64,000 nucleotides of DNA, taken from NCBI RefSeq assembly GCF_046105845.1, contig NZ_CP151004.1, one strand, 5' to 3'. Source of the DNA: Escherichia coli (GTDB taxonomy: Bacteria; Pseudomonadota; Gammaproteobacteria; Enterobacterales; Enterobacteriaceae). The notes below the pieces were generated by a model, which did not search any database, was not told the DNA's origin, and saw only the letters and a program-made list of their open reading frames with translations. Of the stretch, positions 5,802-63,409 are shown in pieces (position 1 is the first letter of the stretch; every line of letters starts with the position of its first letter). A program made the translations under genes and the position numbers.

Positions 5802-6779
5802 TTATTCAACGAGTATTGGCGATAACCAGTACAACATCGCCAGCCATACGATAAATCCGCCAGTTAATAATACCCCTACACCACGGCCCGATTGCGGGGA
5901 GCGCCGCCAGCACAGCAACGCAAAAATAATGCTCACCAGCAACATCACGCTGTAGTCACGACTGTACGCCAGTGGATCAATCTCTCCTGGCGTTATCAGC
6001 GCGGGTAAACCCAACACGATGACAATATTAAAAATGTTTGCGCCAATGATATTTCCGACCGCAATGTCGTTTTCACCTTTGCGAACCCCCGCTATTGCGG
6101 TTGCCAGTTCCGGCAGGCTGGTTCCGATAGCAATTGCCGTCAGACCCATCGTCAACTCGCTGATGGCAAAGTAATTCGCCAGCACCGTGGCGTTATCAAC
6201 CACCATCCGCGTGGCCACTGGCATGATGATAAGCGCAATGCCGAGCCATAAAAACGCGACGGGCAATCCGCCGTCACGCGGCAGCTCTGCAAGCTGCTCT
6301 CTGGTCAGGCTGTCAGTCCCCTGACGTTCAGCCTGACGTGCAAGTTTAACAATGAACAGCAGCCATAGCACAGCCAGAAAGAGGAGAAAGATACCATCGC
6401 TGCGACTAAGTTGTCCGTCATAGAGTACGGAACCGGCCACCACGCTGACCAACAACATTAAGGGTAATTCACGGCGTAGAACATCAGAATGGACGGTAAA
6501 AGGACGAACCAGCGCAGCCAGACCGAGGATCAGCAATATATTGATAATGTTTGAGCCGAGGGCTGTACCAACGGCTAAATTGCGTTGTTCGTGCAGTGAC
6601 GCGGCAAGCGAGACGATGATTTCTGGTAACGATGTACCAATACTGACCACCGTCATGCCGATGATCAGCGGCGGGATGCCAAAGGTTCGGCAAAGAATGG
6701 ACGCGGCAAAAACCAGGCGGTCGGCACTGTAAACGACCAAAAGTAAACCAACAATTAACAGTGCCGTAGCTAAAAGCAT
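5802..6779 (-). CDS. yrbG: Na+/Ca2+ exchanger family inner-membrane protein, 325 aa
   Basis: MLLATALLIVGLLLVVYSADRLVFAASILCRTFGIPPLIIGMTVVSIGTSLPE; duplicated GTSLPE motifs. Confidence 0.9.
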   Translation of the reverse strand: MLLATALLIVGLLLVVYSADRLVFAASILCRTFGIPPLIIGMTVVSIGTSLPEIIVSLAASLHEQRNLAVGTALGSNIINILLILGLAALVRPFTVHSDVLRRELPLMLLVSVVAGSVLYDGQLSRSDGIFLLFLAVLWLLFIVKLARQAERQGTDSLTREQLAELPRDGGLPVAFLWLGIALIIMPVATRMVVDNATVLANYFAISELTMGLTAIAIGTSLPELATAIAGVRKGENDIAVGNIIGANIFNIVIVLGLPALITPGEIDPLAYSRDYSVMLLVSIIFALLCWRRSPQSGRGVGVLLTGGFIVWLAMLYWLSPILVE

Positions 6780-6988
6780 CTAACGTCCTTTCTTCAGGTA
6801 TACTCGCCGGTCCGCTGAAGATTTTCAGAAAGCCGTAACGGATTCTTAATTTTGACTTTATGCGGCTAAAAAGTAAAACAAATGCCAGCTTTCGCTAACC
6901 ACGGCGGGTAATATTCTGTAAATATGTTGGGTTCAAGGTTAAATTGAGCGCCATGCTTAGAAAATCAACGCAAGACGAAGGGTGAATT

Positions 6989-8588
<1,600 letters not shown>

Positions 8589-8592
8589 GTTC

Positions 8593-9144
8593 ATGCAAAC
8601 GAAAAAAAATGAAATTTGGGTGGGTATCTTTTTATTAGCAGCACTACTGGCGGCGCTGTTTGTTTGCCTGAAGGCGGCGAACGTGACGTCCATACGTACT
8701 GAACCGACCTACACGCTTTATGCGACGTTCGATAACATTGGCGGCCTGAAAGCGCGCTCTCCGGTCAGCATTGGTGGTGTTGTTGTGGGCCGGGTGGCGG
8801 ATATTACGCTGGACCCGAAAACATATCTGCCGCGCGTAACGCTGGAAATTGAACAACGTTATAACCACATTCCTGATACCAGTTCGCTGAGCATTCGTAC
8901 TTCCGGCCTGCTGGGGGAACAATATCTGGCATTAAACGTCGGTTTTGAAGACCCGGAACTGGGGACTGCTATCCTGAAGGATGGCGATACAATTCAGGAC
9001 ACCAAGTCTGCGATGGTGCTGGAAGATCTTATTGGTCAGTTCCTTTACGGTAGTAAAGGCGATGACAATAAGAATAGTGGCGATGCGCCAGCTGCTGCGC
9101 CAGGTAATAATGAAACCACTGAACCTGTGGGTACAACGAAATAA
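8593..9144 (+). CDS. mlaD: MCE-domain periplasmic phospholipid-binding protein MlaD
   Basis: ORF 8578..9144; conserved start MQTKKNEIWVGIFLLAALLAALFV at ATG 8593. Confidence 0.93.
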   Translation: MQTKKNEIWVGIFLLAALLAALFVCLKAANVTSIRTEPTYTLYATFDNIGGLKARSPVSIGGVVVGRVADITLDPKTYLPRVTLEIEQRYNHIPDTSSLSIRTSGLLGEQYLALNVGFEDPELGTAILKDGDTIQDTKSAMVLEDLIGQFLYGSKGDDNKNSGDAPAAAPGNNETTEPVGTTK

Positions 9145-9797
<653 letters not shown>

Positions 9798-9798
<1 letters not shown>

Positions 9799-10091
9799 TG
9801 AGCGAGTCACTGAGCTGGATGCAGACGGGTGACACGCTGGCGCTATCCGGAGAGCTGGATCAGGACGTTCTGCTACCGCTTTGGGAAATGCGTGAGGAAG
9901 CGGTGAAGGGGATTACCTGCATCGATCTTAGCCGTGTGTCCCGCGTGGATACGGGTGGACTGGCACTGCTGCTCCATCTTATCGATCTGGCGAAAAAGCA
10001 GGGCAACAACGTGACGCTTCAGGGGGTAAACGATAAAGTGTATACCCTGGCGAAATTGTATAATTTGCCTGCTGATGTTCTGCCTCGTTAA
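9798..10091 (+). CDS. mlaB: STAS-domain protein MlaB, 97 aa
   Basis: Start ATG 9798-9800 overlaps the mlaC stop (TAATG); MSESLSWMQTGDTLALSGELDQDVLLPLWEMREE. Confidence 0.9.
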
Positions 10092-10250
10092 ATTTTTTCA
10101 GGCCGGATATGGCGTTAACCGCCGGTCCGGCAAACCTGCCTGCAAGTCGAGCCTTGTCTGATTTATCAGCGAGGCTTTTTGCTTATTTATGCCAGCGCAA
10201 CTTTGCTCTAAGATGTTTCGCTGGTTTATTAACTGATGATTGAAGATCCC

Positions 10251-10505
10251 ATGGAAAATAATGAAATTCAGAGCGTGTTGATGAACGCTCTCTCCCTCCA
10301 GGAAGTCCACGTTTCCGGCGATGGCAGCCACTTTCAGGTTATTGCCGTGGGTGAGTTGTTTGACGGCATGAGTCGGGTTAAAAAACAGCAGACGGTCTAT
10401 GGCCCGCTGATGGAATATATTGCGGATAACCGCATTCATGCTGTGTCGATCAAAGCGTATACCCCTGCGGAGTGGGCGCGCGATCGCAAACTGAACGGCT
10501 TTTGA
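10251..10505 (+). CDS. ibaG: BolA-family acid-stress protein IbaG (YrbA), 84 aa
   Basis: ORF 10236..10505; conserved start [33 protein letters not shown] at ATG 10251. Confidence 0.9.
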
Positions 10506-10559
10506 GCTATGGGCGATTCGCCGGTAGCGGATATGAATTGTTAACTGAGAACAAACTAA

Positions 10560-11819
<1,260 letters not shown>

Positions 11820-54914: not shown

Positions 54915-55775
54915 ATGAAACAACACCAATCGGCGGATAATTCTCAGGGCCAGCTTTACATTGTACCGACGCCAATCGGCAATCTGGCGGATATCACCCA
55001 GCGTGCGTTGGAGGTATTACAGGCCGTTGATCTGATTGCCGCCGAGGATACGCGTCACACCGGTTTATTGCTGCAACATTTTGGGATTAATGCTCGGTTG
55101 TTTGCGCTGCACGACCATAACGAACAACAAAAAGCCGAAACGCTGCTGGCGAAGCTGCAAGAGGGGCAAAACATTGCGCTGGTTTCCGATGCCGGAACGC
55201 CGCTAATTAACGATCCTGGCTACCATCTGGTGCGTACCTGCCGTGAAGCGGGGATTCGCGTGGTGCCGCTACCCGGGCCGTGTGCTGCTATCACTGCGTT
55301 AAGCGCCGCGGGTTTACCATCCGATCGTTTTTGTTATGAAGGCTTTTTACCTGCCAAATCAAAAGGCCGCCGTGATGCGCTAAAAGCCATTGAAGCGGAG
55401 CCGCGCACGCTGATTTTTTATGAATCTACCCACCGTCTGTTAGATAGCCTGGAAGATATCGTTGCGGTATTAGGCGAATCCCGCTACGTGGTTCTGGCGC
55501 GTGAGCTGACCAAAACCTGGGAAACCATTCACGGCGCGCCCGTTGGCGAGCTGCTGGCGTGGGTCAAAGAAGATGAAAACCGTCGCAAAGGCGAAATGGT
55601 ACTGATTGTCGAAGGCCATAAAGCACAGGAAGAAGACTTACCCGCCGATGCCCTGCGCACGCTGGCGCTGCTACAGGCAGAACTGCCGCTGAAAAAAGCG
55701 GCGGCGCTGGCGGCAGAAATTCACGGCGTGAAGAAAAATGCGCTATATAAGTATGCGCTGGAGCAGCAGGGGTAA
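54915..55775 (+). CDS. rsmI: 16S rRNA C1402 2'-O-methyltransferase RsmI, 286 aa
   Basis: [58 protein letters not shown]. Confidence 0.95.
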
Positions 55776-55790
55776 GCCTGCTGCTGGAAA

Positions 55791-56885
55791 TTACCTGACA
55801 ATAACCGTAATGGTAGCTGATGCTTTAAAAGGTCCGGTCGACAATACTCCACCGACCAGATTTACAGGATAAGCCTGAAAGTGTGTTGTTCCTGCTCCGG
55901 TTTTATCTAGCAGAATGATGCCTGGATTAAATGGAACATCTACTTGCCCTTTAGTCACATCCATAAGGCGGATACCAACATCAGGGACATCATCACTTTC
56001 ACGGCGTCTTGCGACTAAATTATATTGATTAACATAATCTGAACCTTCAATTTTCATATACAAGCTATTGTTAATTTGGGACATATCACCGCAATCATAG
56101 GTAATATCAAAGCTTACTGGAGTGTAACCTGTTGGCATCTGATTTTGTAGGGTGAAACGTTGAGCGCTAATAAATCCAAGATTTACATTAATGGTATCAC
56201 CTTGATTTATTTTGCAACTTTGAGGTACCGTAATTCGGCCTTGAATATAGATTTTAGCAATATCCTTAATGGGACGTGGTGCAGCAGAAGTACTTGTCCA
56301 CGCAGCCTGGACTGAAGCAATATGTGTTTCAGGGATATTCAGTTCACCCAAAAATGGCGTAGTGACGTATAGTGTAATCGTTGTATTTTTACCAATAGAA
56401 AAGTCTGATCCCCGAACATTGGCTGGGTCGGCCATGCACACACTATTGTTTTTGTTAGCATGGTAAGTACCAGTACCGTCTCTAAGCGGTGTATATGAAT
56501 TGCTTGGAACCATAACAGATGGATTACCAGGAATGTCGTTTATTTGGGTTTTAATATCCAGATTAGAATTCAGTCGATAGAAATCTCGTTCTTTACCTTG
56601 AGTTATTAATGCAGATGTTACTGTATAATACAGGTTAACTTTACTACCTGCCGGACAAGAGCAGTTTAAGGTGTAATTGCTCCCAATAGCTGAATTCTTT
56701 ACCACATAATCTTTGCCGGCAACATTATTATCTTGTGTCCAGTCCTCAGAAGCATCTGTCCGAAATTCACCTGTTCCTTCACAATCACCTGTTGCTGCCT
56801 TTACCGATGGGCTAAGTAACAGGGGGGAGACCACGGCAGCAATAGACAATAGTTGTTTAATCATTTTGAAACTCCCTAAAGACAC
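55791..56885 (-). CDS. yraK: Putative fimbrial adhesin/tip protein of the yra chaperone-usher operon
   Basis: MSLGSFKMIKQLLSIAAVVSPLLLSPSVKAATGDCEGTGEF (signal peptide; start could be the internal MIKQ); last gene of the usher operon. Confidence 0.85.
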   Translation of the reverse strand: MSLGSFKMIKQLLSIAAVVSPLLLSPSVKAATGDCEGTGEFRTDASEDWTQDNNVAGKDYVVKNSAIGSNYTLNCSCPAGSKVNLYYTVTSALITQGKERDFYRLNSNLDIKTQINDIPGNPSVMVPSNSYTPLRDGTGTYHANKNNSVCMADPANVRGSDFSIGKNTTITLYVTTPFLGELNIPETHIASVQAAWTSTSAAPRPIKDIAKIYIQGRITVPQSCKINQGDTINVNLGFISAQRFTLQNQMPTGYTPVSFDITYDCGDMSQINNSLYMKIEGSDYVNQYNLVARRRESDDVPDVGIRLMDVTKGQVDVPFNPGIILLDKTGAGTTHFQAYPVNLVGGVLSTGPFKASATITVIVR

Positions 56886-59398
56886 TTTGCCGAATCACGA
56901 ATAATGGGGGTAGTGATGTTCGCGCTATCGTTCAGACTAAACGTAAACTGGCATTGTTGGTTTATTCCACTTCCCCAGCGAACCTTCCAGGTTTGTGGTT
57001 TTTTATTAATGCCGGAGAGATAAATAACTCCAGCTTCATCGACAATACTTTGTTGGAATTGGCCTTCATTACTGGCAACAGCACCAAAAGGAATGGGCTT
57101 ACCTTGGACGTCAGTTAGTGCTAATAGCACTCTGTGACCGGTTTGGGCATTAAAATTTGCAACGACAGCGGCGCCCTGTCCTGGCACGACAATCTTTGCA
57201 GTCTCCTGGACATCTACATTATCCGGCATTGTAGTAGTGTCTAAGGCAATACGATTTTCCTGATAAGCCGTTAAATAAGGGATGACGGCGTAACCAAAGT
57301 AATCGGTGGCAATACCAGGGTAATTTTTAACCCGAATATTAGATGCACCCTGGGTATCAATTACGGCAAATGTATTACCCAGCGGTTGTGAGAGAGTCAC
57401 CCCATGGGGGTGTGCGACAATTCCACCTGAAAGACCATAGCTGAACTGGCGACTGTTTGACGTGTAATCATAGTTGGCGTTAACAGTGCCATAAGCAGAG
57501 CGGTAACTACCAGAAAGCGTACTGCCGTTATTATTATTTTCCTGGTCCATTCGTTGTTTAAAGCTGTAACTTAATCGGTTGTCATCAAGGAAAGAACCGG
57601 TAATGCCAGTCTCATATTGAGTTGAACGGTATTTTTCATCAGTGACACGAAACGTAGCTTGTGCATTAGGTAACCAACGATCCAGAGGCAGACTAATACT
57701 AAAAAAGATTGCCCTATCACTATCGCGATCGGAATAATCTGTGAATTGTCCACTCACGCTGTAGCTGATGCCGGCAAGATAGCCGTTCAGTCCGGCAGAA
57801 TAATTGCGATCATTTTGTTCTGCTCCCCAGTATTCTCGTTGTGCACCTGAAATATAAAAACTGAGATTATCAGTCAGCGTTTGGTTAACGTTGAAAATCG
57901 CTTCGCTGCGTTGGCGATTGTTTACATTAATATCACGTTGGTTTGCGTCGGCAAAGGTAAAAAAAACTGAGTTGGAATAGCGCGAGTAACTAAGAGAAAG
58001 GCTTGTTCCTGTTTCGGGTATATCTTTAATATATTGAAAACGTAAACCTTCCCCGGTAAATTTTTCTTTATTTTCTAACTTCGTTTTGGCATAAGTTAAA
58101 TCAACGGAAAGTGCGCCCAAAATACTCAATGTGCTACCGATGCCTAATGCTGCTGCTTGATAATCCTTGGATCCAGTTACCCCACCATAAAGAGTGAAAA
58201 TATTAGTAAGGCCGTAAAATGCTGTGCCTTCGATGAACTCTGGTTCTTTACTATTAGATGACGGGTCTGCACGAAATCGCCCTGCTGTCATGCTATATAA
58301 AAGATGGCCTGGCCGTTGCATAACAGGAAGTGCTGAAAACGGCTGAGTAAATTGGCGAACGGTACCATCGGCTTCTTCAATTGTAACGTCTAAATCACCG
58401 CTAAATGAGGATGGATAGAGATCGTTGATTTCGAATGCTCCCGCCGGGACATTGCTTTGATAAATTGTATAGCCATTCTGGCGGATGGTGACTATTGCGC
58501 TGGTATTGGCAATCCCACGGATAATCGGTGCAAAACCTCGTAAGCTATTCGGTAACATGTTCTCGTCAGAATAAATTCTGGCACCCGTAAACTGAACGCT
58601 GGAAAAAATTGTGCCATCAGTGGCGCTTTCACCAAGCACTAATTGCGACTTTAAACTCTTAATATCACGCTGCAACCAACTATTAATACTATCCCAGCGA
58701 GTCTCATTACTGCTATGTGTCCACGTGGAGTAATTACGCAACCGCCATGGGCCGATATTGACTCCATTTTGCATATTGAGATAAAACCTTTCATTCTTTT
58801 CGCTGTTACTATAATAACTGTTCGAGCCACTAAAACTGTAATTGGTAAACAATACTGGAATACCATGATCCCACCTGGCGGGATCAACATAACCAGAAGG
58901 GTCACGCCGCAGGGCAATTTGTGGAATGTCCAGGATGAGAGTGCTATGGTTGAGGTCTATCTTTGTTTTGCTTCCAGGTACGGTTTTGGATAAATCTGTT
59001 ATCAGGGCGTTGTCATCAAGAGTATTTAGTGAATTTATTTCGTCAACTTTAAAACCCAATTCGCGTAAAAGACCAACGGTAAGCTGTGGGCGAATTTCTC
59101 CATTATCATCTATAGCAAAAGTGATTTTTCTCTGAGTCACCTTTTTTTTATTGATAACGATCTCAACATCATAATCACCGGGACTATGAGTATTTTTACC
59201 GGAGAAAGCAGATAAATCGCTTGCCTTTTGACCACTCTTTGTTGTTTCCAGCAATGAGGGATCAAAATAGTAATTGTCAGCAATGGCATGAAGAGGGGAC
59301 AGAACTCCACCAGTAATAAGAACAGGTAATACTGTTTTTAACCAGCAGGAAAGTGGTTTCATAACAGGTAAAGAGATGCATTTTATTTTGGTTTTCAT
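56876..59398 (-). CDS. yraJ: Fimbrial outer-membrane usher protein, 840 aa
   Basis: MKTKIKCISLPVMKPLSCWLKTVLPVLITGGVLSPLHAIADNYYFDPSLLE; usher-size beta-barrel protein; C-terminal Cys pair. Confidence 0.92.
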   Translation of the reverse strand: MKTKIKCISLPVMKPLSCWLKTVLPVLITGGVLSPLHAIADNYYFDPSLLETTKSGQKASDLSAFSGKNTHSPGDYDVEIVINKKKVTQRKITFAIDDNGEIRPQLTVGLLRELGFKVDEINSLNTLDDNALITDLSKTVPGSKTKIDLNHSTLILDIPQIALRRDPSGYVDPARWDHGIPVLFTNYSFSGSNSYYSNSEKNERFYLNMQNGVNIGPWRLRNYSTWTHSSNETRWDSINSWLQRDIKSLKSQLVLGESATDGTIFSSVQFTGARIYSDENMLPNSLRGFAPIIRGIANTSAIVTIRQNGYTIYQSNVPAGAFEINDLYPSSFSGDLDVTIEEADGTVRQFTQPFSALPVMQRPGHLLYSMTAGRFRADPSSNSKEPEFIEGTAFYGLTNIFTLYGGVTGSKDYQAAALGIGSTLSILGALSVDLTYAKTKLENKEKFTGEGLRFQYIKDIPETGTSLSLSYSRYSNSVFFTFADANQRDINVNNRQRSEAIFNVNQTLTDNLSFYISGAQREYWGAEQNDRNYSAGLNGYLAGISYSVSGQFTDYSDRDSDRAIFFSISLPLDRWLPNAQATFRVTDEKYRSTQYETGITGSFLDDNRLSYSFKQRMDQENNNNGSTLSGSYRSAYGTVNANYDYTSNSRQFSYGLSGGIVAHPHGVTLSQPLGNTFAVIDTQGASNIRVKNYPGIATDYFGYAVIPYLTAYQENRIALDTTTMPDNVDVQETAKIVVPGQGAAVVANFNAQTGHRVLLALTDVQGKPIPFGAVASNEGQFQQSIVDEAGVIYLSGINKKPQTWKVRWGSGINQQCQFTFSLNDSANITTPIIRDSAKCL

Positions 59399-59450
59399 TA
59401 TTCCCTTATTTCCTTATTCCCTGTCATATGTATAAGTTTTGTATAAATAA

Positions 59451-60143
59451 TTATGGCAAAGTAGATGTATATGTATCCGTATTACCGCCATAGTCATTAA
59501 TGGCTGCCCATTTCACGATGTTTTCTGAAACTAATGGCAATGGTAATTGCTTATGTTCACCCGGTGCAATAAATTCTATTTTATCGGTAAAGTCGGTTTT
59601 TCCTACAGCCAGTCCTGAAAAAACAACGTAATATGCCGAAGGATTATATATCTCCAGTTGGTTGTTCTTCCTTGAGAATTTTAGGCCTTTATAGGCATCT
59701 GAAGGTCTACCGTCCATTTCTGATGGTCTGTAAAAGAGTTTAATGCGTGTTTTAAATACTAAAGTAAGTAGGTTCTTATCTTGCGTTTCTTTTTTATCGA
59801 CAGCAGGAATTGCACGGACGTTAATATAAAAAAGTGATTCTTTATCTCTCGGTAGATTGCCATCGGTTTTAATGATACGCAATGAAGAGTTGTCTCCGGC
59901 ATCAAGACGAAATAGCGGAGGGGTAATAATAAAAGGGCCGCGAGAAGAGTCATAGATATTTTCAACCCACGATTGTAATAAATATGGTGGTTTATCACTT
60001 CGATTAGTGACCGGCAATGCAGCTTCTTTTTTACTACCATCATAAACTACACGCGTTCTTTCCAGAAGGATTCCACCAGCCAGACTCTGGTTCACCCAGC
60101 CAGCTAATAGAAAAAGTATTGCAAACGATTTTTTAATCTTCAT
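59451..60143 (-). CDS. yraI: PapD-like periplasmic fimbrial chaperone, 230 aa
   Basis: [62 protein letters not shown]. Confidence 0.92.
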
Positions 60144-60232
60144 CTTCTGTTACCGCTACGAAATAAAATTGTCTCTTTAACAGCAGACCGCTAAAGAGAC
60201 AAAATAAAGGATTATGAACTAATGACTAGTTA

Positions 60233-60805
60233 TCAACGATAATCAAGAGTTACATCCACAGTAGCATTAGCTTCACCGGGTTTGATTTTATCGGCTGTTG
60301 TGGTTGACACATAGTAAGCCGCTAAATCTAAATTCATCGTGGAACCAGTAATTGGGAAAGATATCTTTGGAACACTAAGTTTGTTAATTGCCATAGGTGT
60401 TTGAGCATCTTTTTCAATCCGAATACCAACACCTGTAGCCGCGGTATCTGGGTCCATACTTGTAACAGCAACTAACTCATTGTTATCACCGGTAGTTGCT
60501 CCGTTACGCGTTTCCAGCCATAACTGGAAAGACGCATCTTTAGTACCATCAATGTGATCCCAGGCTACCGTTGGGCAGTTTTTCAACGGAATAGTGAAAG
60601 GGATCGTAGGGGATTTATCCCCTTTAAACTTAAACTGATTAGCGGCATAGTGACCTAATTCAACATAAACTGTATCACCATTCGCAAATTCACAGACAGT
60701 GCCAAGAATTTCACCCGTGAATTCAATTTTTCCATCGGTTGCGGAGGCGCTACCGGCAAAAAGCGCCAGCAGGCCAGCGGCAACTGTCTTAGCTACTTTA
60801 CTCAT
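60233..60805 (-). CDS. yraH: Fimbrial major subunit (pilin), 190 aa
   Basis: MSKVAKTVAAGLLALFAGSASATDGKIEFTGEILGTVCEF (signal peptide, conserved Cys pair); first gene of the usher operon. Confidence 0.9.
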   Translation of the reverse strand: MSKVAKTVAAGLLALFAGSASATDGKIEFTGEILGTVCEFANGDTVYVELGHYAANQFKFKGDKSPTIPFTIPLKNCPTVAWDHIDGTKDASFQLWLETRNGATTGDNNELVAVTSMDPDTAATGVGIRIEKDAQTPMAINKLSVPKISFPITGSTMNLDLAAYYVSTTTADKIKPGEANATVDVTLDYR

Positions 60806-61285
60806 AAGATAACCTTAGTCCTTGTAACTAGTACTTCGAATAAATATGAAATGTAAGATTCTTTTCAACAACAGAAACGATTATACCTACTGAAGCATGG
60901 AGTGGATAAAAAATAGTCATTTTTAAGAATATATTTATATTTCCTGAAGCTATTTAAAAACCATATATATTAGTATTGATTATGTTATGATGTGAATGTA
61001 GTAAGACTAAAAGGGTAATTATAAGTATAATTCAATGGGTTGATAGCAGTTATTGTAATGATAATCACTAATATTGACTTTTGTAGTTATGAGTTGTGAA
61101 CTGTAAGAATAAAATGTAATATGTTATGACGTTTAATAGTTGATGTTGTTAAATATAAGCTTAATTAAACTATATGATATTGAAAAAGTGGGGATGGATA
61201 ACTAAAACTATTTTGCCTGTATATACGAGCAGTGGAAGGGGTTTGCACAGGAAGCCCTTTCTTCTGTTGAACAGGCCTCCCCTAC
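60806..61285 (-). promoter_or_regulatory. Extremely AT-rich upstream/regulatory region of the yraHIJK fimbrial operon
   Basis: About 480 bp of long A/T tracts (e.g. atatatattagtattgattatgttatgatgtgaatg); no convincing ORF; typical of nucleoid-protein-silenced fimbrial promoters. Confidence 0.45.
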
Positions 61286-61403
61286 GATGGTTGCAGAACG
61301 GGCGTTCTTCTGCGAGTGCTCTGACACGTTATCGATAGCCTTCACTGGCCGTGAATCAGACGATTATCAATACGAGTTAAGAGAATATTTGACAATGTCA
61401 TGT
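61286..61403 (-). pseudogene. Relic of a mannose-family PTS operon: EIIB start (19 codons) joined out of frame to an EIID-like fragment
   Basis: Minus strand from ATG 61401-61403 reads MTLSNILLTRIDNRLIHGQ* (EIIB-Man hallmark RIDxRLIHGQ); the next frame reads VKAIDNVSEHSQKNARSATI, about 80 percent nucleotide-identical to agaD 62874-62950 (VKAIDKVRENSQMIARSATI). Confidence 0.6.
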
Positions 61404-61451
61404 TTTTATTTCCTATCATCCATTTCACCTTTATTTGGTTTATCAGAGGGC

Positions 61452-61482
61452 AATAAAAAAGGCAGATAATTAATTATCTGCC
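61452..61482 (-). terminator. Intrinsic terminator on the minus strand about 370 nt downstream of agaI
   Basis: Perfect palindrome ggcagataattaattatctgcc (61461-61482) followed on the minus strand by a U-run (complement of aaaaaa 61455-61460). Confidence 0.6.
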
Positions 61483-61852
61483 TGATGTGTCATGCTTTTT
61501 TTGCATCCGTTCTCATGTTTTTACCAGAAAATATCTTTGTGTGCCGAAGTTAAAACGTAAGTAATTTCACCGTTTTGCACATAGTGGCAGCAACCTTCAA
61601 TAATGATTCTGGCATTGCAAGCAAAATGATTGACCCATTCGGTCGCTGTGTGTCCGCTTTTTTCGTTGGCGGGTTTTGTTCTGATTACTGAACAACGTAA
61701 CGTGTTTATCTATAAATTAAACAGTGAACATAATTTCATTTTTAAGTGAAATTATGTTCAAGTTGATTACAGATTACTTAACTTAAAATATAGTTAATGA
61801 AGTTAAAGTATTGGTTTTGGCGTATTAGTCGTATTTCTGATAAAGAAAGTGG

Positions 61853-62617
61853 TTATGCTTTGCTTCTCTCTATTAAACAAATAAAGTTACTGTGCAGCCA
61901 TAAAAACGAAGCCGGGATAGCGGTGGAGACTTTAGCCGTGAGAAAACGTTCTGTCGCATCCTGCTTTCCTTCGCCAGTCACCAGTAACAAAACTTCGCGG
62001 GCACTGAGAATATCCTTCAGGCCTAAGGTGATCCCACGAATCACGGGACGGCCCGCGGTTTTTAACATCTCATGTTGCTGTGTTCTGGCATCAAGTTGAC
62101 TGATATGGCAGGCCGGTTGCAGGCTTTCTCCCGGTTCGTTCAGCCCAAGATGACCGTTTTTCCCCAACCCGAGAACGCATAAATCCAGACCGCCTTTGCG
62201 CGCAATCAGGTTCGTTACCCGTTCGCACTCTGTCTCATTTATCTCTTCGGAGCGAAAGCTGATGAGCTGGTCTTCACGCAGCCCCAGCGGCTGCACGATA
62301 TGCTGTTGTAGGAAAGTTTCGCAGGTGCCAGGCATCGTTAATGGCAGATCCACCCATTCGTCGAGCTTCACGAAGGTGAGCTGGCTGACATCAACCTGCT
62401 GCTGGTGGATTTTTTCTACCAGATAATGATACGTCAGTAATGGCGTGGCTCCGGTCGCCAGGCAAATCACGGCATCCGGTTTGCTACGGATCACGGCCAA
62501 TAAATATTCGCTGGCACGTTCACTTAACGCCGTATAGTTTTCAACTTGTTGAAGGGTTTGCACAGGATGAAATTCCTTAAGTAAAGAGGCACCGCCAGAC
62601 GCGGTGCCTCGTTCCAT
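61853..62617 (-). CDS. agaI: Galactosamine-6-phosphate deaminase/isomerase-like protein (NagB family), 254 aa
   Basis: MERGTASGGASLLKEFHPVQTLQQVENYTALSERASEYLLAVIRSKPDAVICLATGATPLLTYHYLVEK. Confidence 0.9.
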   Translation of the reverse strand: MERGTASGGASLLKEFHPVQTLQQVENYTALSERASEYLLAVIRSKPDAVICLATGATPLLTYHYLVEKIHQQQVDVSQLTFVKLDEWVDLPLTMPGTCETFLQQHIVQPLGLREDQLISFRSEEINETECERVTNLIARKGGLDLCVLGLGKNGHLGLNEPGESLQPACHISQLDARTQQHEMLKTAGRPVIRGITLGLKDILSAREVLLLVTGEGKQDATERFLTAKVSTAIPASFLWLHSNFICLIERSKA

Positions 62618-63409
62618 TTACAAAATGCCGAATGCGGAACAAACAATAGAGAGCACAAAAGTCACGCCGATTAACAGCACCGGATGCGCTTTTTTCACCC
62701 GCAGGAAGTAATACATCAGCAGGGTGTAGGCCATCGGTAAAATGTTCGGGAAGACTTTATCGAAGAAATCCTGTTGCAGCGCGACGCTGTGGGTACTGTC
62801 GATGGCAAACGATGTCACCACGTTAATATGCACATACGAAGCGATCAGCCCGCCGATTACCGTGATCCCGAGGATGGTTGCCGAACGAGCAATCATCTGC
62901 GAGTTCTCTCGCACTTTATCGATCGCCTTCACGCCGACTGAATAACCGACGTGGGTCCAGCCGACGCGCAGGAAGAAGATAAGCAGGTAAACGGCGAAAA
63001 ATAGAATCGGCCCCAGCAAGTTTCCCTGGCTGGCAAATGATGAGCAAATTCCCGCCATAATCGGCAATAAGGTAAACCAGAAAATCGCATCGCCAATCCC
63101 GGCGATTGGGCCAAACAGTGCCACTTTGAGGCCTTTAATGGTGTCGCGGTTTTCTCCTTTTTCTTCCATCGAAATTAATAACCCCATCAGGAATCCGACC
63201 AGATTCGGGTGGGTATTAATAAATTCGAGGTTATCTTTCATCGCCGCGCTTAGGCCCGGTTTGTCGTCCTTATAAATCTTTTTCAGGATCGGCAACATCG
63301 CCCAGGTAAAACCGCCCGCCTGCATCCTTTCGTAGTTAAAGCTTGCTTGTAGCAGTGACGAACGAAAGCCCAGACGGGTGATATCTTTTTTACTGATTTC
63401 AGATCCCAT
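62618..63409 (-). CDS. agaD: PTS N-acetylgalactosamine/galactosamine EIID component, 263 aa
   Basis: ORF 62618..63571; conserved start MGSEISKKDITRLGFRSSLLQASFNYERMQAGGFTWAM at ATG 63407-63409. Confidence 0.9.
   Translation of the reverse strand: MGSEISKKDITRLGFRSSLLQASFNYERMQAGGFTWAMLPILKKIYKDDKPGLSAAMKDNLEFINTHPNLVGFLMGLLISMEEKGENRDTIKGLKVALFGPIAGIGDAIFWFTLLPIMAGICSSFASQGNLLGPILFFAVYLLIFFLRVGWTHVGYSVGVKAIDKVRENSQMIARSATILGITVIGGLIASYVHINVVTSFAIDSTHSVALQQDFFDKVFPNILPMAYTLLMYYFLRVKKAHPVLLIGVTFVLSIVCSAFGIL

Follow-up and report, generated by a model that had tools for sequence, protein, structure and literature searches.

A probable mosaic pseudogene relic of a second, divergent aga-type cluster between agaI and a fimbrial operon in Escherichia coli

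The analysed stretch of Escherichia coli DNA (assembly GCF_046105845.1, contig NZ_CP151004.1; 64,000 nt, hereafter the window) contains a spacer on its minus strand (61852-60806, 1047 bp) between agaI and a yraHIJK-type four-gene fimbrial operon, and the question is what this spacer is made of and how it came to lie there. The corresponding agaI-yraH spacer of strain K-12 is 400 bp long. An earlier note had read 118 bp of the spacer (61286-61403) as the deletion scar of a second mannose-family PTS operon, in which the start of an EIIB gene had been fused to the 3′ part of an EIID gene. The object proved to be larger. It is a mosaic of 381 bp (~380 bp; 61660-61280, minus strand) that reaches up to 61660 and is composed of a malY-like 3′ end with its terminator, the first 19 codons of an agaB-type gene and 22 internal codons of an agaD-type gene. 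We assign a probability of about 0.78 to the reading that it is a non-functional pseudogene relic of a second, divergent cluster of the malX2-malY2-agaB-agaC-agaD(-agaI) type. The note was thus right about the scar of a second operon, although this operon belonged, as a divergent second copy, to the same agaBCD (galactosamine) type and was not a different mannose-family PTS operon. The relic is flanked by resident, intact agaBCDI genes and by the divergent yra-like fimbrial operon. The names malX2 and malY2 were coined in this analysis for the malX-like and malY-like genes; the MalY/PatB family name is the PGAP annotation of two comparison loci (L001, from E. coli 2020CK-00188, and L003, from O145:H28 strain RM9872; locus coordinates 6417-11438), referred to below as O145-type. 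A third comparison locus, L004, is from Escherichia sp. MOD1-EC7003 (NZ_PTRE01000040.1). The features of the region are as follows:

63409-62618 and 62617-61853, minus strand: resident agaD and agaI, preceded by a partial agaC, at the window end, with agaI starting directly after the agaD stop
61725..61760, minus strand: terminator-like hairpin just downstream of agaI (context, outside the relic)
61488..61660, minus strand: 3′ remnant of malY2 (MalY/PatB family), ~57 codons covering residues 334-388 of 390, with the 5′ 85% missing
61451..61483, minus strand: predicted intrinsic terminator of malY2 (consensus scan), with a 10-bp stem (AGGCAGATAA/TTATCTGCCT) and a T run
61402..61450, minus strand: agaB-type 5′ leader, which aligns with the malY2-agaB spacer of L001, L003 and L004 and has a Shine-Dalgarno-like AGGA at 61414-61411
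61342..61401, minus strand: agaB-type EIIB fragment of 19 codons from its ATG, with the RIDxRLxHGQ phospho-histidine motif and a TGA made by the junction
61280..61345, minus strand: internal fragment of an agaD-type EIID gene (codons 160-181 of 263); its frame differs from that of the agaB piece, and its GTG overlaps the TGA
61232..61252, minus strand: possible third colinear scrap, weak, resembling agaI codons 17-23 (20/21 nt)
60941..61279, minus strand: AT-rich orphan sequence (~340 bp) separating the relic from the promoter region of yraH′
55775..61872, minus strand: divergent 6.1-kb block that begins with the final ~20 nt of agaI and continues through the relic-bearing spacer and the yraH′I′J′K′ fimbrial operon

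Sequence reading and translation of the minus strand showed an ATG at 61401-61399, followed by 19 codons (MTLSNILLTRIDNRLIHGQ) up to 61345 and by a TGA at 61344-61342. The EIIB-like start and its stop codon described earlier are therefore real, with the ATG 2 nt away from the 61403 originally given. The peptide matched K-12 AgaB at 16/19 residues and its paralogue AgaV at 12/17, and the DNA was 91.5% identical to K-12 agaB over 47 nt. The N-terminal motif RIDxRL(I/V)HGQ of AgaB-type EIIB proteins (PF03830) is present, and close truncated relatives carry PF03830. A complete EIIB reading frame of ~158 residues is absent; the piece is a gene fragment and no member of the EIIB family in a functional sense. 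A protein search with the 47-residue AgaB stub of the O145 type returned short truncated proteins only (<84 residues), and none that was both full-length and close to the relic allele.

The adjacent frame, from the GTG at 61345 to 61280, reads VKAIDNVSEHSQKNARSATIVG. When the spacer was compared with the whole window by blastn, this segment matched the resident agaD (62932-62867) with 81.8% identity over 66 nt (E 8e-13), in agreement with the ~80% previously reported for an internal agaD segment. Identity was 83.3% to K-12 agaD and 84.8% to agaD of strain MEW, with E-values down to 1e-15 (blastn). By blastx, 16/22 residues agreed with AgaD residues 160-181; a comparison with the paralogue AgaE gave 8/22, so the piece was assigned by similarity to AgaD-type EIID (PF03613) and not to AgaE. 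The proposed fusion to the 3′ part of an EIID gene did not hold: a complete EIID frame of ~263 residues is absent, just codons 160-181 survive, and agaD homology ends at 61280. As judged from E-values, the similarities of the EIIB start and of the EIID piece lie far beyond chance, and chance similarity of the pieces was rejected on these grounds. The shared antisense peptide MVAERA..TLSIAFT, said to begin two ORFs, does open ORF 61287..61469 but lies at the C-terminal end, not at the start, of ORF 62742..62945. The TGA of the agaB stub and the GTG overlap as GTGA (61342-61345); the GTG opens a 45-codon ORF (61208..61345, minus strand), an arrangement that resembles translational coupling. The overlap is a by-product of the junction. 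Beyond residue 22, no homologue of the 45-codon ORF was found.

The third piece lies upstream of the other two. The segment 61660-61498 encodes MalY2 residues 334-388 in two frames (blastx against O145 MalY2, E 3e-16). The malY2 reading frame is not intact: it is broken by a frameshift near 61566 and by a stop, and its first 333 codons are absent. At the DNA level the remnant was 80% identical to the E. coli O145-type loci and 78% to Escherichia sp. MOD1-EC7003. A search of strain MEW, which bears the relic, matched a single place, so that no second malY2-like copy was seen in that genome. Downstream of the remnant, the predicted terminator (61483-61460) has 10 pairs and a 4-nt loop followed by TTTTTTATTG, and passes the terminator consensus scan. 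A perfect inverted repeat of 23-24 nt is found at this position in the window and in L001, L003 and L004. The 32-nt terminator region is identical to that of the intact loci, whereas its flanks are ~80% identical (~20% diverged); the estimated chance of such an identity at an 80% background is 0.8^32 = 0.001.

The spacer was compared with 5426 complete E. coli genomes by megablast. In 31 other complete E. coli genomes (O145:H28 and relatives), 61660-61345 matched at ~80% a locus annotated as 'MalY/PatB family protein | PTS sugar transporter subunit IIB'. The alignment is contiguous over 316 nt (80%, E 6e-78), runs through the last 173 nt of malY2, the terminator, the leader and agaB to codon 19, and ends at 61345. 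The O145-type gene order is kbaY, malX-like, malY-like, an agaB stub (49-59 codons), a LysR regulator, an MBL-fold hydrolase and rsmI, with neither agaCDI nor yraHIJK. Loci of this kind (e.g. NZ_CP028379.1) share with the relic the malY2-terminator-agaB start (80%) and a dead agaB stub left by deletion or replacement; PGAP labels theirs 'PTS sugar transporter subunit IIB, incomplete'. They differ in that malX2 and malY2 are intact and the stub abuts the LysR and MBL-fold genes, whereas in the window the 19 codons are fused to an agaD scrap and a full resident agaBCDI set is present. Since they lack agaCDI, O145-type strains should be unable to import galactosamine via AgaBCD.

An intact counterpart was found by scanning one genome per species for MalY2, followed by tblastn with aga proteins and ORF listing. 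In Escherichia sp. MOD1-EC7003 the order is kbaY-malX2-malY2-agaB-agaC-agaD-REP-like array-agaI-yraH... rsmI, with all genes full length. The relic aligned with this locus in the same order and on the same strand, 61660-61345 with malY2-agaB (78%) and 61345-61287 with agaD (80%), the first alignment ending at the junction. The K-12 spacer does not contain the relic. The agaBCD set of MOD1-EC7003 is that strain's only copy, while the relic is 20% diverged, spans 381 bp and lies downstream of another, intact agaBCDI set. The REP-like array of MOD1-EC7003 (L004 13400-14230, in the agaD-agaI gap) consists of about seven tandem REP/BIME-like units with a 115-bp period and contains repeated 77-residue pseudo-ORFs. 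In Kluyvera, Enterobacter and Citrobacter, kbaY-malX2-malY2 is followed by rsmI without agaBCDI, and nothing in the scan of species-representative genomes was closer than ~80% to the relic. The relic pieces follow the order and strand of the intact malY2-agaB-agaC-agaD cluster; with only two independent pieces, such an agreement in order and orientation would arise by chance in ~1 in 4 cases and by itself counts for little. The malX2-malY2-agaBCD arrangement was once present in, or donated to, the lineage that carries the relic. The K-12 kbaY-agaB spacer was also considered as a simple deletion derivative of the malX2-malY2 arrangement and rejected, the spacers being unrelated.

In the alignments with L001, L003 and L004, homology to intact or longer agaB genes ends exactly at 61345. 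After codon 19, functional agaB continues with GTT GGC GTG ACC (V20 G21 V22 T23), and agaD has GTC GGC GTG (V158 G159 V160) before K161, so that the motif GT(T/C)GGCGTGA is common to the two parents and coincides with both breakpoints. The 10 nt on the 3′ side of the agaB breakpoint (GTTGGCGTGA) and the 10 nt on the 5′ side of the agaD breakpoint (GTCGGCGTGA) match at 9/10 positions, and the chance of sharing such a motif was estimated at ~1e-4. This suggests a microhomology-mediated deletion of ~1.8 kb. A crossover within the shared motif would have produced an in-frame AgaB(1-22)::AgaD(161-263) fusion. The junction is not that exact product, as the relic lacks 7 nt of it (GTTGGCG), a loss that shifted the frame and created the TGA; it could have occurred at the time of the deletion or later. 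The stop of agaB homology at 61345, the intact malY2-agaB-agaC-agaD order of MOD1-EC7003 and the shared breakpoint motif bear out the earlier proposal that a deletion brought an EIIB start and an EIID piece together and eliminated EIIC.

Because only 22 internal codons of agaD survive, and not the 3′ part of the gene, at least three deletions, presumably illegitimate, would have been needed to reduce the second cluster. One of them would have removed malX2 and the 5′ 85% of malY2 (upstream of codon 334). Another would have run from agaB codon ~19-22 to agaD codon ~158-160, most likely at GT(T/C)GGCGTGA, with agaC lost entirely, together with most of agaB and the 5′ 60% of agaD. A further one would have removed everything past agaD codon 181. 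The homologies, the breakpoints, the intact colinear counterpart in a relative and the absence from K-12 are observed; the order of these events, the loss of function and the former presence of the full second cluster at this exact site are what we infer. Neither an intact second cluster nor an intermediate form was found at this site in any genome examined, and all 11 relic-bearing sequences share the same 1047-bp spacer. On the 3′ side, Smith-Waterman comparison of 61279-60941 with aga, malX2, LysR and MBL loci gave scores no better than those of shuffles, and further scraps were not found. A distant blastn search of E. coli genomes with the AT-rich DNA (60806-61290) returned strain MEW as the sole match. 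The agaI-like match at 61252-61232 scored 30, a value reached by 2/500 shuffles against the 1.5-kb resident agaD+agaI target, but its score did not exceed that of shuffles on larger targets, and for this reason it was not counted as a piece of the relic.

The mismatches between the relic and its functional homologues fell at codon positions 1:2:3 in the ratio 14:8:25 (sum of malY2 vs O145, agaB vs O145 and agaD vs K-12; chi-square ~9.5, p ~0.01). This bias towards third positions indicates that much of the 15-20% divergence arose under purifying selection, before decay, in a divergent lineage. The source copy is thus a once-functional divergent allele, and no recent copy of the resident genes. 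Decay after the divergence would account for the malY2 frameshift and stop and for six replacements in the AgaD segment, whose 22 residues are invariant in four Escherichia alleles and changed at 6/22 in the relic, although the pieces are short. Among 12 closely related sequences, the relic showed 16-23 variable sites per kb and the yra′ genes 0-8; the higher diversity of the relic fits a lack of constraint, but 12 closely related sequences make no strong test. The relic would now be without detectable constraint and would encode nothing useful.

For the block 61872-55775, identity is 65-68% to K-12 and 78-81% to MOD1-EC7003, and the two flanks reach ~98% with K-12; the block's position between K-12-like flanks indicates that the yraHIJK-type operon is an allelic replacement. 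The left crossover falls within the last ~20 nt of agaI and altered the C-terminus of AgaI (…CLIERSKA vs …CLINT in K-12). The relic lies at the agaI-proximal edge of the 6.1-kb block, and since it does, with the crossover inside the end of agaI, joint acquisition, or joint retention, of the relic and the divergent yra′ operon is probable. The closest YraH′ relatives that are not identical (76% and 69% identity) had no relic-like DNA in their surroundings. Upstream of the 76%-identical relative, on a Logan contig of SRR26188678 (L037 1-200), only the last ~15 codons of an agaI-like gene (…SFLWLHSNF…) were seen, so other lineages may also carry agaI remnants beside yra-type operons. In one relic-bearing genome, GCA_002110185.1 (L025 11408-13931), two ORFs (529 and 293 residues) take the place of a single usher gene, and the usher is probably a pseudogene there.

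Such a location raises the alternative that the 381-bp mosaic arrived as a small, already rearranged foreign patch, or through template switching or abortive recombination, and was inserted in the agaI-yraH spacer, possibly with the yra′ block. The position of the relic at the edge of a foreign-looking block whose left crossover lies inside the 3′ end of agaI would suit such an origin, as would the lack of intermediates and the fact that, relative to MOD1-EC7003, the window spacer looks like a ~740-bp insertion between 61683 and 60940. Nevertheless, an imported patch would have required the same deletions elsewhere, so that it departs from decay in place solely as to their site. The microhomology at the breakpoints speaks for a direct agaB-agaD deletion within a colinear cluster, and a same-strand position beside the aga operon is what decay in place predicts. 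We therefore consider importation unlikely. Hardly any probability attaches to the pieces being recent copies, made by gene conversion or small duplications, of the agaB and agaD resident in this genome. The identities to the resident or K-12 genes (89-91% for the agaB piece, 82-85% for the agaD piece) might seem to invite it, but the agaB piece is contiguous with the malY2 3′ end and the malY2-agaB spacer, which are absent at the resident locus, where the kbaY-agaB spacer is unrelated; a divergence of 9-18% with third-codon-position bias excludes recent copying as well. The malY2 linkage and the codon-position bias together rule it out.

A different possibility is that the relic is functional, its Shine-Dalgarno-ATG 19-codon ORF, the GTGA-overlapping 45-codon ORF or the terminator hairpin acting as a micropeptide, leader or insulator that controls the fimbrial operon. 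The SD-like AGGA and the ATG are preserved, and the terminator region, which passes the consensus scan, has stayed identical amid flanks of 80% (chance ~0.001). Yet the two ORFs owe their existence to the junction, the longer one has no homologue past residue 22, and the whole is absent from K-12 and almost all E. coli, has neither a gene call nor an RNA family match, and is polymorphic within its lineage 1 nt before the ATG and at other sites inside both pieces. Selection at a time when malY2 was still alive accounts for the conserved hairpin. A present function of this kind thus appears very improbable. Slightly fainter still is the prospect that the relic has been co-opted, its preserved terminator and/or the coupled 19- and 45-codon ORFs serving as an insulator or leader that sets how much aga transcription reaches the yra-like operon. 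If the relic is instead a decayed remnant, as we favour, the fossil terminator is the sole feature of it that might still act; this predicted terminator of malY2, having been retained, may happen to go on blocking transcription that runs on from agaI.

The relic is rare. Megablast found the whole spacer at 99% in 1/5426 complete E. coli genomes (strain MEW, GCF_060446345.1), and the relic was found in ~150 assembly blocks. All ten contigs encoding the identical YraH′ protein have the same 1047-bp spacer, with 99.0-99.8% identity over 61700-61200, and intact agaBCDI. No donor with >81% identity was found in the 5426 E. coli genomes, in species-representative genomes or in a metagenome scan; the metagenome scan with the 32-nt terminator returned one contig, of O145 type. 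There were no gene calls in the spacer in 11 genomes, and PGAP annotates nothing there in strain MEW. An Rfam scan gave no match, promoter-like matches were not commoner than in shuffles, and a literature search returned nothing on the relic or on malX2-malY2 variants. For the K-12 aga/gam cluster, PMC3668189, citing Brinkkoetter et al. 2000, describes a 2.3-kb deletion that left truncated agaW′ and agaA′. It resembles the relic in being an internal deletion of the aga/gam region that fused truncated genes with loss of a PTS component; it differs in that it affects the single functional Aga PTS operon, is annotated and gives an Aga- Gam- phenotype, whereas no phenotype is expected of the relic, a second and redundant copy.

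The relic adds one unannotated example to a familiar kind of object, the pseudogene scar, in an interval prone to recombination. It changes nothing known about amino-sugar transport; its interest is mainly evolutionary and its practical value modest, although it provides a clean lineage marker and a textbook-like case of deletion at a short microhomology. Were co-option true, it would link amino-sugar availability to fimbrial expression in this lineage. The case also indicates that a 1-kb 'intergenic' gap should not be taken for regulatory DNA by default. With four architectures seen (the K-12, O145, MOD1-EC7003 and window types), the kbaY-rsmI interval of Escherichia has been rebuilt repeatedly.
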